A stretch of DNA of 64,000 bases, from positions 801-64,800 of the forward strand of contig JAJDNV010000090.1 of assembly GCA_022340545.1 (NCBI GenBank), in the 5' to 3' direction. The notes under the pieces are model-generated. The model did no database searches. It had not been told where the DNA came from and saw only the letters and a list, made by a program, of their open reading frames with translations. Position 1 is the stretch's first letter, and every line of letters begins with the position of its first letter. The stretch comes from Acidobacteriota bacterium (lineage in GTDB: Bacteria > Acidobacteriota > Vicinamibacteria > Fen-336). The translations under genes were made by a program, and so were the position numbers. Positions 18,181 to 48,925 of the stretch are shown here, piece after piece.

Positions 18181-18205
18181 GAGCGACAGGCCGACAGGCC
18201 CAGCT

Positions 18206-18395
18206 TCACCCGCGTGTCCCTTCCCGTGAGGACACGCGGGTGTCCGAGGCCTGTCTCAAGGCTTTTCCTGGCCTGTCGGAGGCGACGCTGGCGCGTCGCG
18301 GCGTCCACTCGGGGTCGACGCTCGTCTCGCAAGCTCGACTTCGCGTCCCCTGAGCCCCCTCCGTGGGGAGGGATAGGGTGGGGGGTCGGTGAATG
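18206..18395 (+). repeat. Structured intergenic repeat, long form, copy 1 of 4
   Basis: Shares with the copies at 39278 and 48805 a 5' hairpin module (cccgcgtgtccc..ggacacgcggg), GCCTnTCTCAAG, an internal ~120-bp hairpin-rich module (GCGACGCtggcGCGTCGC etc.), and a 3' core CCCTCCGTGGGGAGGGATAGGGTGGGGGGTC. Confidence 0.8.
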
Positions 18396-18726
18396 ATGAC
18401 GAGACCCACGCGTCCACGATGGAGCCGGCCCACAAGGCGACGATGGCGAGGGTGATCCACAGGAAGAATTCGGCGTTGTCGCGATGAATCTCGCGGGCCA
18501 GGCGGAAGGGGAGAAGGGGATCGATCTGGGCCGGATCAGTGGGCAGCCGGGCGAGCGTCTCCGCGGCGACCCGGCGAATGAGGGCCACAACCGCGACCAG
18601 GCTTCCGGTGGCGAAGGCGAGGCCGCGAACGGGGTGGCCGCTCATCAGCTGGCCGAGCCCCGGGAACACGAGACCCGACAGCAGCACGGACCGCCACGGG
18701 CGGCGGGGATTCGGGCGGGGCTCCAC
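18256..18726 (-). CDS. Small membrane protein (FPGLGQLMSG motif) whose C-terminal ~45 aa are encoded by repeat copy 1
   Basis: Candidate GTG at 18726 or ATG at 18645. The TM-rich core is ...WRSVLLSGLVFPGLGQLMSGHPVRGLAFATGSLVAVVALI...FFLWITLAIVALWAGSIV. The tail FTDPPPYPSPRRGLRGREVELARRAS... is the same peptide produced by reverse translation of repeat copy 3. Confidence 0.45.
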   Translation of the reverse strand: MEPRPNPRRPWRSVLLSGLVFPGLGQLMSGHPVRGLAFATGSLVAVVALIRRVAAETLARLPTDPAQIDPLLPFRLAREIHRDNAEFFLWITLAIVALWAGSIVDAWVSSSFTDPPPYPSPRRGLRGREVELARRASTPSGRRDAPASPPTGQEKP

Positions 18727-31974: not shown

Positions 31975-32050
31975 TGGTGGGCGCTGCAGGATTCGAACCT
32001 GCGACTTCCACCGTGTGAAGGTGGCACTCTACCGCTGAGTTAAGCGCCCG
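31975..32050 (-). tRNA. tRNA-Val (anticodon CAC), CCA encoded
   Basis: Reverse strand reads GGGCGCUUAACUCAGCGGUAGAGUGCCACCUUCACACGGUGGAAGUCGCAGGUUCGAAUCCUGCAGCGCCCACCA. This gives a 7-bp acceptor stem, anticodon loop UUCACAC with anticodon CAC, and T-loop GGUUCGAAUCC. Confidence 0.8.
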
Positions 32051-37212: not shown

Positions 37213-37304
37213 TGTAGACCGGTTGGGTCGGTGCGGACGGGTATTTCGCGTGCCCCACCCCGGATCGGGCAAACCGGAGACGAATTGGCGGGCGTCCGTG
37301 GCCT

Positions 37305-37360
37305 ATCTCAAGCATTTTCCTCCCCCTACGTGGGGAGGGATAGGGTGGGGGGTCATTGAA
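37305..37360 (+). repeat. Structured intergenic repeat, short form, copy 2 of 4
   Basis: GCCTATCTCAAGCATTTTCCTCCCCCTACGTGGGGAGGGATAGGGTGGGGGGTC. Lacks the 5' hairpin module and the ~120-bp internal module. Confidence 0.75.
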
Positions 37361-37369
37361 TAGCCAGGT

Positions 37370-39231: not shown

Positions 39232-39277
39232 GGGTCCCGCCGAGTATACGGCAGTGCGGCTGGCCATCAGGCCGAGA

Positions 39278-39485
39278 CTCGCCCGCGTGTCCCTTCCTTG
39301 GGGACCCGCGGGTGGACGGGGCCTATCTCAAGACGCCTCGCGGCCTGTGGGAGGCGACGCTGGCGCGTCGCAGCGTACACTCGGGGTCGACGCTCGTCTC
39401 GCCAGCTCGACTTCGCGTCCCCCGAGCCCCCTCCGTGGGGAGGGATAGGGTGGGGGGTCGATGAACGATTGTGGCCGCTGAGCGT
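39278..39485 (+). repeat. Structured intergenic repeat, long form, copy 3 of 4; lies between the divergent pyk and nuoA
   Basis: Near-identical module order to copy 1. It shares its 3' tail (GATGAaCGATTGTGGCCGC) with copy 4. Confidence 0.8.
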
Positions 39486-39641
39486 AGAACTCTCTCTCCT
39501 CACGGGGCTTGCGTGTCCTCGGGGCGTTTGACACCCCGCGAGGCCGGAAGCTATATTCCGGCGTCGATCACCATCTGCCGTCGCCGCCGTTCTTCAATCG
39601 TTAGACCAGGACCCTTCGCCCGACCGCCAGACGCTCCGATC

Positions 39642-39992
39642 ATGCCCAGCTACCTTCCGATCGTGATCCTGGGGGCGATCGCCCTGGGCTTCGGTGTCTT
39701 CGTGCTGGCGGCCTCCCACATCATCGGGCGCCCTCGCCCCGACGCCCGGAAGCTGTCCACCTACGAGTGCGGCATGCCGCCGGTCGGGACCGCCCGCGAG
39801 CGGTTTCCGATCAAGTTCTACCTCGTGTGCATGCTCTTCATCCTCTTCGACGTGGAGACCGCGTTCTTCTATCCGTGGGCGCTCGTCATGGACACGCTGG
39901 GGATCTACGGTCTGATGGCCATGGGGACATTCTTCCTCGTCCTGGCCGTGGGCTTCGTCTACGAGTGGAAGGTCGGAGCGATGGACTGGTAG
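39642..39992 (+). CDS. nuoA: NADH-quinone oxidoreductase subunit A
   Basis: 116 aa, three TM helices; ...STYECGMPPVG...FDVETAFFYPWA matches the NuoA/ND3 signature. Confidence 0.85.
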   Translation: MPSYLPIVILGAIALGFGVFVLAASHIIGRPRPDARKLSTYECGMPPVGTARERFPIKFYLVCMLFILFDVETAFFYPWALVMDTLGIYGLMAMGTFFLVLAVGFVYEWKVGAMDW

Positions 39993-39996
39993 CGGC

Positions 39997-41817
39997 ATGG
40001 AGCTCACCCCCGACAACCTGAAGGCCTTCGAAGAGATCGTCGCCCGCTACCCCGTCAAGCGCTCCGCCCTCCTGCCGACGTTGCGGCTCGTGCAGGAGCA
40101 GGAGGGCTGGATCAGCCGCGAGGCGATGGAGTACATCGCGAAGCTCCTGGACCTCAGTCCGGCCCAGGTGAAGGACACCGCCAGCTTCTACACGATGTTC
40201 CATCTCGAGCCGAAGGGGAAGACGGTCATCGAGGTGTGCACGACGCTCTCCTGTGCCCTCGGCGGGGCGGAGAAGCTGCTCGGGCACACGTGCAGGAAGC
40301 TCGGGATCGAGCCCGGGGGCACGACCGCGGACGGTAGGTTCACGGTCAAAGAGGTGGAGTGCCTCGCCGCCTGCGGGGGCGCTCCCGCGGTCCAGGTGAA
40401 CGGGGAGTGGCTCGAGCACGCCACCGAGGCCGACCTCGATCGGGTGCTGGCCGGGGAGACCGTGCGCCGGACCTTCGAGTGGCCGAAGAGCCCGGGCGAG
40501 CACCTACTCTTCCAGAACGTCTGGAAGGAGAACTCCACCTCGATCGACGTCTACAAGGCCTCCGGTGGCTACGCGAAGCTCGGCGAGTGGCTGAGGTTCG
40601 AGCCCGAGATCCTCATCGAGGAGGTCAAGAAGTCGAACCTGCGCGGCCGCGGCGGCGCAGGGTTCCCGACCGGGATGAAGTGGGGGTTTCTTCCCAAGGA
40701 GAGCCCCAGGCCCCGGTACATGTGTGTCAACGCCGACGAGAGCGAGCCCGGGACCTACAAGGACCGGGTCATCATCGAGCGCGATCCCCACCGCCTGATC
40801 GAGTCGATCGTGGTGTCCTGCCATGCGATCCGATCGAAGACCGCCTACATCTACATCCGCGGCGAGTTCCATGAGGGCGCGCGAACGCTCGAGAAGGCCC
40901 TGGCCGAGGCGAGGGCGGCGGGCTACGTCGGCAAGGACATCCTGGGCACCGGCATCGACGTCGATATCTGGGTCCACCGCGGCGCCGGCTCCTACGAGTG
41001 CGGGGAGGAGACGGCCCTCATCGAGTCGCTCGAGGGGAGGCGGGGCCAGCCCCGCATCAAGCCCCCGTTCCCGGCGGTGGTGGGGGTGTACGGCTGCCCG
41101 ACGATCGTGAACAACGTCGAGACCCTGGTCAACGTGCCGCTCATCCTCGAGCGCGGAGCGGAGTGGTTCGCAAGCTACGGCACCGAGAAGAACGGCGGAC
41201 CCAAGCTCTACTCGATCAGCGGTCACGTCGTCCGTCCTGGCAGCTACGAGGCCCCGATGGGGCGGATCACACTGCGTGACCTCATCTACGGCGAGGGGTA
41301 TGCGCAGGGGATCAAGGACGGCCGCAAGCTCAAGGCGGTCGTCCCCGGGGGCTCCTCGACGCCCGTCCTCACCGCGGACGAAATCGACATCGCGATGGAC
41401 TTCGACGGCGTGGCCAAGGCGGGATCGATGCTCGGCTCCGCTGGCACCGTCGTGATGGACGACTCGACCTGCATGGTGTGGATGGCGAAGAACCTCATCT
41501 ACTTCTACAAGCACGAGTCCTGCGGCAAGTGCTCCCCCTGCCGGGAGGGGACGGGCTGGATGTTGCGGCTCCTCGAGCGCATCGAGGCGGGGGAGGCCCA
41601 GGAGAAGGACCTGGATCTCCTCTGGAAGGTCACGGACTCGATCTCGGGCAAGACCGTGTGCCCGTTCGGCGACGCCGCGATCGCCCCGCCCCAGTCGACG
41701 CTCCAGAAGTTCCGTGAGGAGTTCGAGTACCACGTCCGCGAGGGACGCTGCTGGAAGTCGGTGGCGCCCACCTTTGAAGAGGCGAAGGCGAAGTCGGGCA
41801 GGGCGGTGTCTGCGTGA
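39997..41817 (+). CDS. nuoEF: NADH-quinone oxidoreductase fused subunits E and F (NuoE-NuoF fusion)
   Basis: The N-terminal ~160 aa carry the NuoE thioredoxin-like 2Fe-2S cysteines (CTTLSC...ECLAACGGAP). The remainder is NuoF: GRGGAGFPTGMKW FMN/NADH site and ESCGKCSPCREG 4Fe-4S. It follows nuoA directly with no nuoB/C/D between. Confidence 0.85.
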   Translation: MELTPDNLKAFEEIVARYPVKRSALLPTLRLVQEQEGWISREAMEYIAKLLDLSPAQVKDTASFYTMFHLEPKGKTVIEVCTTLSCALGGAEKLLGHTCRKLGIEPGGTTADGRFTVKEVECLAACGGAPAVQVNGEWLEHATEADLDRVLAGETVRRTFEWPKSPGEHLLFQNVWKENSTSIDVYKASGGYAKLGEWLRFEPEILIEEVKKSNLRGRGGAGFPTGMKWGFLPKESPRPRYMCVNADESEPGTYKDRVIIERDPHRLIESIVVSCHAIRSKTAYIYIRGEFHEGARTLEKALAEARAAGYVGKDILGTGIDVDIWVHRGAGSYECGEETALIESLEGRRGQPRIKPPFPAVVGVYGCPTIVNNVETLVNVPLILERGAEWFASYGTEKNGGPKLYSISGHVVRPGSYEAPMGRITLRDLIYGEGYAQGIKDGRKLKAVVPGGSSTPVLTADEIDIAMDFDGVAKAGSMLGSAGTVVMDDSTCMVWMAKNLIYFYKHESCGKCSPCREGTGWMLRLLERIEAGEAQEKDLDLLWKVTDSISGKTVCPFGDAAIAPPQSTLQKFREEFEYHVREGRCWKSVAPTFEEAKAKSGRAVSA

Positions 41818-48588: not shown

Positions 48589-48804
48589 GCGGGCTGGTCC
48601 GCGGAGGGGCGCTCCAGAGGTCCGCTACGCGGGGACGCTCGGTTGGGCGTTGGCCTCTTCAACCGGAAGGTGCGCCCGCCCTCGCTCGAATCGCCCCCCA
48701 CGCTTCACGGACATTTCATTGAGGGAGGGGGGCTCCACGCCCCGCTTCGCGGACCCCTGGCGCGCCGGGGCGACGAAAAGGTTGGGCTGGCCACCAGGCC
48801 TAGG

Positions 48805-48925
48805 CTCGCCCGCGTGTCCCCTCCCTGAGGACACGCGGGAGTACGAGGCCTATCTCAAGCATTCCCCTCCCCCTACGTGGGGAGGGATAGGGTGGGGGGT
48901 CGATGACCGATTGTGGCCGCCGAGC
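48805..48925 (+). repeat. Structured intergenic repeat, intermediate form, copy 4 of 4; downstream of nuoN
   Basis: Has the 5' hairpin module plus GCCTATCTCAAG plus the short 3' core (CCCCTCCCCCTACGTGGGGAGGGATAGGGTGGGGGGTCGATGACCGATTGTGGCCGC). Lacks the internal module. Confidence 0.8.

Follow-up and report, generated by a model that had tools for sequence, protein, structure and literature searches.

A BoxC/PIT-type triplex motif with G-quadruplex potential as the end module of a mosaic repeat in an acidobacterial genome

Short motifs able to fold into intrastrand triplexes, formerly known as BoxC and PIT elements, consist of three blocks, a C-rich arm (Y), a purine block (R) and a G-rich block (RH), of which the first two are separated by a loop and the last two by a loop of 3 nt (Holder et al. 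2015, PMC4666352), with RH lying antiparallel on R and forming G·G:C and A/T·A:T triads (PMC4666352). The E. coli member is always intergenic, exhibits no strand bias and is accompanied by raised local variability (PMC4666352), and an earlier study, in the form in which it is cited there, found E. coli PIT elements to possess neither promoter nor terminator activity. Two further groups of repeats are related to these motifs: HPG1 and HPG2 of E. coli, which combine a conserved intergenic G-quadruplex (G4) with a C-rich 5' flank and form a hairpin or a G4 depending on the ions present (Kaplan et al. 2016, PMC5100583), and the recurrent intergenic G4 motifs of Methanomicrobiaceae, which lie beside a partly complementary C3TC3 tract and interconvert between triplex, hairpin and G4 in vitro (PMC8044849). 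Here, we describe a motif of this kind in a 64-kb stretch of the acidobacterial contig JAJDNV010000090.1 (hereafter the window, i.e., the whole stretch of DNA that was analysed), in which a G-rich 21-mer, GGGGAGGGATAGGGTGGGGGG, recurs four times. In the reading that we favour, the 21-mer consists of the purine block and the mirrored G-rich block of a BoxC/PIT-kind triplex element that ends a mosaic, multi-copy repeat, and the copies in the window are most likely passengers without a dedicated role in controlling nuoA or pyk; we assign this reading a probability of roughly 0.6.

All four exact copies of the 21-mer are on the plus strand, at 18365-18385, 37332-37352, 39437-39457 and 48879-48899, and no further match with up to three mismatches is present in the window (0.01 expected from shuffled sequences). 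The 21-mer contains four tracts of at least three G separated by the loops A, ATA and T (1, 3 and 1 nt) and conforms to the canonical G-quadruplex definition (four runs of at least three G, loops of 1-7 nt). The exact matches confirm what a preliminary description of this DNA had claimed, namely four plus-strand 21-mers with a canonical G4 and loops of 1, 3 and 1 nt. The positions that it gave for copies 1-3 were right, apart from an end drawn one base too long in two of them, whereas the fourth copy, placed at about 48888, actually starts 9 nt away at 48879. The C-rich arm that it had seen ahead of the G4 is also present, as CCCTCC followed by GTGG in the long copies and as CC(C)TCCCC followed by CTACGT in the short ones. 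Canonical G4 patterns as such are unremarkable in this window of 70% G+C (24, compared with 16.5 ± 3.7 in shuffles). An excess is seen for short-loop G4 motifs (9 vs. 2.5), and four of these nine are the copies of the 21-mer.

The G4 reading fits the motif but misses the mirroring of its second block by its third. In the window, the motif is laid out as CCCTCCCC / CTACGT / GGGGAGGG / ATA / GGGTGGGG, and because the third block mirrors the second, the motif qualifies as a class II purine-motif intrastrand-triplex (BoxC/PIT) element. In a definition of the ITxF type, Y, R and RH follow each other on one strand with stems of 6-15 nt and loops of 1-6 nt, Y is the Watson-Crick complement of R, and RH is antiparallel to R with G opposite G and A or T opposite A. 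A scan of the 64 kb under these published rules, limited to perfect triads, returned exactly the four repeat copies and nothing else (mean in shuffles, 0.03), with stems of 6, 7, 6 and 8 nt free of mismatches and loops of 4/3, 6/5, 4/3 and 6/3 nt; the 6-nt stems of the long copies are at the lower bound of the definition. The core of copy 1 (18357-18385, plus strand) reads Y CCCTCC (18357-18362), loop GTGG, R GGAGGG (18367-18372), loop ATA and RH GGGTGG (18376-18381), then GGGG, and copy 3 (39429-39457, plus strand) carries the same series, with Y at 39429-39434, loop GTGG, R at 39439-39444, loop ATA and RH at 39448-39453, then GGGG. In copy 2 (37319-37352, plus strand), Y CCTCCCC (37319-37325) is followed by the loop CTACGT, R GGGGAGG (37332-37338) and RH GGTGGGG (37344-37350). 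Copy 4 (48865-48899, plus strand) yields eight perfect triads from Y CCCTCCCC (48865-48872), loop CTACGT, R GGGGAGGG (48879-48886), loop ATA and RH GGGTGGGG (48890-48897), then GG. The copies are intergenic with the exception of copy 1, which overlaps the 3' tail of a called open reading frame (ORF).

With BoxC, PIT and TM-ECO of E. coli and other bacteria (Hoyne & Maher 2000, 2002; PMC4666352), the window motif shares the class II purine-motif block order, a first loop of 3-6 nt and a second of 3 nt, the occurrence of multiple, intergenic, well-conserved copies that also match the G4 consensus, and local sequence variability between relatives. However, the strict TM-ECO pattern, CCCTCNCCC N3-6 GGGNGAGGG N3 GGGNGAGGG, has no match on either window strand, and the motif is thus a relative of TM-ECO from a different sequence family, with GGGGAGGG/GGGTGGGG in place of the GGGNGAGGG/GGGNGAGGG blocks. 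It also differs from BoxC/PIT elements in forming the last module of a larger mosaic repeat, whose 3' box is conserved, in lying on one strand without an inverted pair, in the 6-nt Y arm of its long form and in its phylum. The HPG1/HPG2 sequences are E. coli BoxC sequences, often arranged as inverted pairs, for which a regulatory role was proposed but never shown (PMC5100583), whereas the transcript context in the window does not support a leader role. The Methanomicrobiaceae motifs are archaeal and have the opposite order, with the C tract 3' of the G blocks (PMC8044849). A literature search with the exact 18-mer in either orientation found no paper, and the window scan assigned the repeat to no Rfam family at the gathering score. 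The only Rfam match at that threshold in the window is a tRNA gene (31978-32049, minus strand).

The motif is not confined to the window. In a scan of one genome per species, its 19-mer was found at no fewer than 117 loci, in Alpha-, Beta- and Gammaproteobacteria, Acidobacteriota, Nitrospirota, Chloroflexota, Planctomycetota, Bacteroidota, Gastranaerophilales, Zixibacteria and others; the matches listed include cultured Azospirillum and Cucumibacter strains, and in almost all of these matches CCCTCCCC and a loop of 4-6 nt precede the 19-mer. Only two viral contigs carry it. One of them (L212, an IMG/VR contig of 14.8 kb and 44% G+C, classed as viral) holds six copies with the C arm, two of which form a perfect inverted pair at 1367-1407, and one copy lies 8 nt before an ORF start.

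Because the genome search had fixed both R and RH, other G-rich Y:R hairpins without the searched core were examined as well. Among the listed loci, such hairpins comprise 265 strand instances, and a mirrored RH follows 3' of R in 83 of them, compared with 5 on the control side. A canonical G4 motif is absent from 24 of these 83 variants (29%). Interruptions covary between the blocks: GGGGGAAGG occurs with GGATGGGGG, AAAGGGGGG with GGGGGGATT and GGGAGAGGGG with GGGGTGAGGG. When RH was located by its G positions alone, the base opposite an internal A of R was A or T in 94/94 instances and 45/45 unique pairs; in the loops of these motifs, by contrast, G/C makes up 38% (P about 4e-10). The mirrored rule is therefore kept even where G4 potential is missing, which identifies the three-block mirrored architecture as the constraint on the family. 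G4 potential appears to be a by-product, since mirrored blocks holding G3 runs yield a G4 pattern.

Each 21-mer is the 3' end-piece of a longer repeat that is built from modules: A, a 78-nt unit with a hairpin of 11-15 bp; B, of 86 nt; and C, of approx. 52 nt, which contains the Y-R-RH core and a terminal box, TCRATGAAYGA. All copies are on the plus strand. The two long copies, copy 1 (18183-18397; A 18183-18262, B 18266-18345, C 18346-18397) and copy 3 (39256-39470; A 39256-39332, B 39333-39418, C 39419-39470), are approx. 215 nt each and 88% identical, and in copy 3 the terminal box TCGATGAACGA (39458-39468) is directly 3' of the 21-mer. Copy 4 (48783-48912; A 48783-48859, C 48861-48912) is a short form of approx. 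130 nt without the 86-nt module B, and copy 2 (37288-37362) is a stub of approx. 75 nt consisting of the 3' part of A and module C. Separate nhmmer searches with the modules, covering the window and loci from metagenome-assembled genomes labelled as Acidobacteriota or Vicinamibacteria, revealed the combinations A-B-C, A-C, lone C, B-B-C', B-D-C (D being an additional hairpin module in a related genome) and a tandem C-A-C-A-C; GGGG-TYRWTGAAYRA mini-repeats often trail module C. The mosaic nature of the multi-copy repeat is evident from these combinations, and the A/B/C mosaic belongs to Acidobacteriota, probably Vicinamibacteria. Among the structural variants are a 73-nt tandem duplication (L079, 1-200), a copy with GGGGGGGTAGGG replacing GGGGAGGGATAGGG (L104, 535-610) and a copy cut after GGGGAGGGAT and followed by a further hairpin module (L015, 1836-2019).

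The gene context differs from copy to copy. Copy 1 begins 3 nt past the stop codon of fpg (plus strand). Copy 2 is flanked by two minus-strand genes, with the stop of an RlpA-like gene on one side and the start of a methyltransferase gene on the other, such that the sense strand is the C-rich one. Copy 3 occupies the spacer between the divergent pyk and nuoA genes, and copy 4 lies between the convergent nuoN (stop 48588) and selA (minus strand, stop 48953). As a consequence, the G strand is sense, antisense or part of an untranscribed spacer, depending on the copy.

These contexts bear on the idea, put forward in the preliminary description, that the G strand toggles between a C-arm hairpin and a parallel G4 and in this way controls nuoA, pyk and genes near nuoN. 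The folding side of this idea is plausible. A C arm that could sequester the G4 as a hairpin was recovered in every copy: as single-stranded DNA, the C modules are predicted to form a Y:R hairpin of -7 to -15 kcal/mol, and for the G tail of the long copies, a second C run upstream is an additional pairing partner. With the G4 term of ViennaRNA, the RNA G4 (-28 to -32 kcal/mol) is favoured over the hairpin (-17.5 to -28 kcal/mol) by 3.5-11 kcal/mol in all four copies; these are RNA energies from a model that contains no triplex, and they consequently provide no ranking against one. On such energies a G4 is plausible in the copies, each of which carries a canonical short-loop motif. Published fold data on relatives conflict. 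Nuclear magnetic resonance of the isolated strand of the E. coli member gave 18 imino signals, corresponding to a triplex, and excluded a G4 for the full-length strand (PMC4666352), whereas circular dichroism of E. coli motifs revealed a transition between K+ and Mg2+/Li+, for which a 'G4-hairpin-duplex switch' was proposed (PMC5100583), and the archaeal counterpart passes from triplex to G4 after annealing in K+ (PMC8044849). The switch idea accordingly coincides with a hypothesis already published for BoxC-type elements, for which a regulatory role has been proposed. In addition, variants in two relatives (L119 and L124) keep four tracts of at least four G, a change of loop ATA to ATG in a third (L199) lengthens a G-tract, and in relatives the motif is part of operon transcripts, immediately ahead of atpD and kdpA.

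It is the control of genes in the window for which the evidence is unfavourable. A promoter-like site, TTGACA-18-TATATT (11/12 matches; 39528-39557, plus strand), lies between copy 3 and the nuoA ATG (39642), and both the site and its surroundings are conserved in a repeat-free relative, L118, whose Pyk is 83% identical. Since this conserved site intervenes, copy 3 is most likely upstream of the nuoA transcription start and thus outside the leader, as judged from the consensus match and its conservation; the earlier placement of the element in the nuoA leader was therefore not borne out, and its placement in the pyk leader is not supported either. A promoter scan found no minus-strand promoter in the pyk/nuoA spacer. 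The remaining copies have mixed orientations, one being antisense between minus-strand genes, one between convergent genes and one over the tail of a coding sequence, and the neighbouring genes share no functional theme. Furthermore, the rule followed by the family is the mirrored triplex pattern, and NMR spoke against a G4 in the full-length E. coli strand. Thus, the alternative structures fit both the folding model and the published switch, but a regulatory G4/hairpin switch acting on nuoA, pyk and genes near nuoN seems unlikely.

Several observations were made beside copy 3. A block, CCGAGTATACGGCA (39236-39250), is located 6-19 nt upstream of the likely pyk ATG (39231) and is also conserved in the relative without the repeat. 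A longer pyk ORF, from 39267, would start inside module A and is probably too long. In the window (39642-41817) and in three relatives (L199-L201), nuoA is directly followed by a single gene of approx. 606 aa that combines NuoE-like (2Fe-2S thioredoxin-like) and NuoF-like (51 kDa) parts, and then by nuoH; nuoB, nuoC and nuoD are absent between nuoA and nuoH, an order that is unusual for a complex I operon.

Comparison of orthologous sites revealed both presence and absence of the element. The pyk/nuoA spacer of one relative (L129, 97% identical Pyk) contains it, with the contig ending within the element, whereas in L118 the flanks are conserved and approx. 85 unrelated nucleotides take its place. 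On the 3' side of pyk, L119 and L124 (76% identical Pyk) carry a perfect variant of nine triads, CCCCTCCCC / CTACGT / GGGGAGGGG / CTA / GGGGTGGGG, and no C variant is present there in the window. At copy 1, the reverse strand of the element supplies the last 47 or so codons of the minus-strand ORF 18256-18687, which encodes a conserved small membrane protein without a Pfam family. Most homologues end 3-12 residues past WAGSIVDAW, whereas the window ORF and a few close relatives read on through the reverse strand of the element (..DPPPYPSPRRG..; ..SSFTDPPPYPSPRRGLRGREVEL..; window tail ..DPPPYPSPRRGLRGREVELARRASTPSGRRDAPASPPTGQEKP, then stop). In other relatives, the same site holds only the box and a G run, two such units, a lone C, or B+C. 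These comparisons show that copy 1 took the place of the coding-sequence tail.

Other families of short repeats behave similarly. REP/BIME, Correia, ERIC, RUP and Rickettsia palindromic elements are short structured modules that form mosaics, exhibit insertion polymorphism and occasionally are read through in coding sequences or supply expression signals. The window element resembles REP/BIME and other small non-autonomous repeats in its variable mosaic, insertion polymorphism and coding read-through, but it has neither a GTAG tetranucleotide, inverted REP doublets nor terminal inverted repeats, and no associated transposase was identified. Classification as REP or REPIN was rejected, as there is no GTAG-type tetranucleotide and the four copies are direct rather than inverted. 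A miniature inverted-repeat transposable element was rejected as well: the termini GCGGCTGGCC.. and ..TCGATGAAYGA are not complementary, and flanking direct repeats of 8-9 nt are found only occasionally, in relatives.

The second line of evidence for insertion comes from lone C modules at start codons. Among the listed loci of other Acidobacteriota, 9/13 lone C modules have the same orientation as the gene that follows and lie 3-27 nt upstream of its start, the genes being kdpA, atpD, cysS, leuC and those for a methylmalonyl-CoA mutase small subunit, a Cys/Met PLP enzyme, an HMA-thioredoxin protein, CysZ and a TAT-signal oxidoreductase (lone-C loci: L062 at atpG/atpD, L033 and L223 at kdpF/kdpA, L023, L044, L049, L063, L087, L091 and L103). 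Eight of these starts are Pfam-confirmed, and that of cysS was assigned from its N-terminal sequence only. In five relatives with 87-95% identical AtpD, the atpG-atpD spacer is 15-28 nt long and has an ordinary Shine-Dalgarno (SD) sequence, whereas L062 contains an insert of approx. 125 nt flanked by TCAATGAA, which displaces the native SD and ATG by that distance; the new ATG comes from the box, and the protein starts MTASEN instead of MASEN. Likewise, an insert of approx. 71 nt separates kdpF and kdpA in L033 and L223, compared with 1-10 nt in L224 and L226. Given that the orthologous spacers are short, the lone C modules before atpD and kdpA are insertions. An extra threonine was considered as a signature of start replacement and was dropped, as it holds for atpD and fails for kdpA, where the MT start is native. 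In L049 (1755-1815), a 27-nt core lies between perfect 9-nt direct repeats, GTCAAACGA.

In these modules, the ATG is often within the terminal box, and the G tail is positioned like an SD sequence. The calculated duplex of the tail with the anti-SD core amounts to -10.5 kcal/mol, compared with -7.3 and -4.0 kcal/mol at the displaced native sites, and TAG, TGA and TGA can be read in the three frames of core and box. Within Acidobacteriota, a long ATG-started ORF begins no more than 40 nt from the motif in 8/21 cases, compared with 1/21 on the control side; in other phyla the motif shows no such excess (11 vs. 8 of 111). Because those relatives must still express atpD, the 3' end of module C probably serves there to initiate translation, or is at least compatible with such a use. 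It could be argued, then, that the repeat is a portable initiation cassette in which the G tail GGGUGGGGGG serves as an SD sequence for an AUG that follows at 3-12 nt, within the box or beside it, with stops in three frames ahead, and whose window copies are unused or decaying. The start codon taken over in L062 and the stronger anti-SD pairing are consistent with such a role. However, no plausible gene start follows any of the four window copies, composite A-B-C and antisense copies are unfit for the role, and the pattern could equally mirror where insertions are tolerated instead of a function. As an account of the element, this proposal therefore strikes us as rather improbable. An extended form of it, in which module C would be a mobile, self-contained start cassette that lands just before or on the start codons of housekeeping genes such as atpD and kdpA and substitutes its own G tail and AUG for the native ribosome-binding site, merits still less credence: translation would respond to ions or temperature, with the tail free in the C-arm hairpin and sequestered in the K+-stabilised G4, and the A-B-C copies of the window would be DNA-level vehicles or relics.

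Two further roles that might be suggested by the structured modules can be weighed against the window copies. Copies 1, 2 and 4 are 3-50 nt past a stop codon, and modules A and C fold into stable hairpins, as would be expected of a REP-like stabiliser of mRNA 3' ends or of a terminator, i.e., GC-rich hairpins that protect upstream transcripts or stop transcription. Yet, a scan of all four copies found no U-tract or terminator-like site at any of them, copy 3 lies between divergent gene starts, and PIT elements of E. coli are cited as lacking terminator activity (PMC4666352), which makes this role very unlikely. A promoter or terminator carried by the element was considered separately and rejected, as there is none at copies 1, 2 and 4 and the sole promoter-like site is outside copy 3. 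Transcription of the whole A-B-C unit as a multi-copy structured small RNA is hardly credible. The plus strand of copy 3 does fold somewhat better than shuffles (z = -2.9), and a permissive scan gave weak, sub-threshold resemblance to the Rfam families P35, RsmW and Whalefall-1 hairpin; this resemblance is at chance level, no family reaches its gathering score, and no promoter-like site was found at any copy. Moreover, the modules occur in variable combinations, including truncated and tandem forms, and ten copies of module A contain just one compensatory pair, which is uninformative.

It is reasonable to assume that the window copies are passengers, given that their orientations and positions with respect to genes are mixed and that copy 3 is upstream of the predicted nuoA promoter. 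In this passenger reading, the elements would spread or be rebuilt at the DNA level; the junctions yielded no precise insertion mechanism or target. When single-stranded, the G strand could fold into the hairpin, with the G tail joining it as a third strand, or, alternatively, the hairpin could refold into a G4 in K+. Such structures would probably make the sites prone to rearrangement, whereas the window copies would exert local structural effects at most. The preliminary description had also raised genome instability, and this suggestion agrees with the 'genomic instability' reported for E. coli relatives of the motif (PMC4666352).

A number of points weigh against the reading that we favour. 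The preference of ViennaRNA, as RNA, is for the G4 over the hairpin. The Y arm of the long copies yields just six triads, and three acidobacterial loci (L046, L049 and L091) have no Y arm but strictly retain the 21-mer; retention of the 21-mer with a short or absent arm fits a constraint from G4, H-DNA or protein recognition better than one from an intrastrand triplex. Furthermore, the triplex of the E. coli motif was undetected in duplex DNA and in vivo (PMC4666352). All four copies are on one strand, which is not required of a passive element, although with n=4 the chance is 1 in 8. As to mobility, no mobilising enzyme was found, and the window was not screened for RAYT or IS200/IS605 transposases; neither terminal inverted repeats nor clean target-site duplications were found at the elements, the flanking direct repeats being short ones in L062 and L049 only. 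The elements are 99.6-100% identical in contigs from at least six other samples, and the sole difference within the repeats is 37342 A to G in L199, which changes loop 2 of copy 2 from ATA to ATG and lengthens the third G-tract. Being so similar, these contigs are silent on recent mobility. It should be noted that near-identical strain contigs from other samples often break within the element, as expected of a dispersed repeat.

In summary, the window motif belongs to the BoxC/PIT/intrastrand-triplex kind; both the lineage in which it is found and its setting, the last module of a mosaic insertion element, are new. This finding illustrates how a bacterial repeat with a 'textbook G4' can turn out to carry a triplex-type motif of three blocks, of which the G4 is the visible half. 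Such motifs have been described since the 1990s under several names, and G4 surveys of GC-rich genomes will keep rediscovering them. The family extends past Proteobacteria and Cyanobacteria to Acidobacteriota, Nitrospirota, Chloroflexota, Planctomycetota, Bacteroidota and others, and the survival of the mirrored-block rule where the G4 is lost suggests that the family is constrained by a triplex or by the mirror arrangement, or is recognised through its structure. In addition, the acidobacterial mosaic element can overwrite the end of a coding sequence, and among relatives it can take over the translation starts of essential genes. An acidobacterial lineage with many recent insertions would offer a good setting for testing the role of BoxC-type elements.

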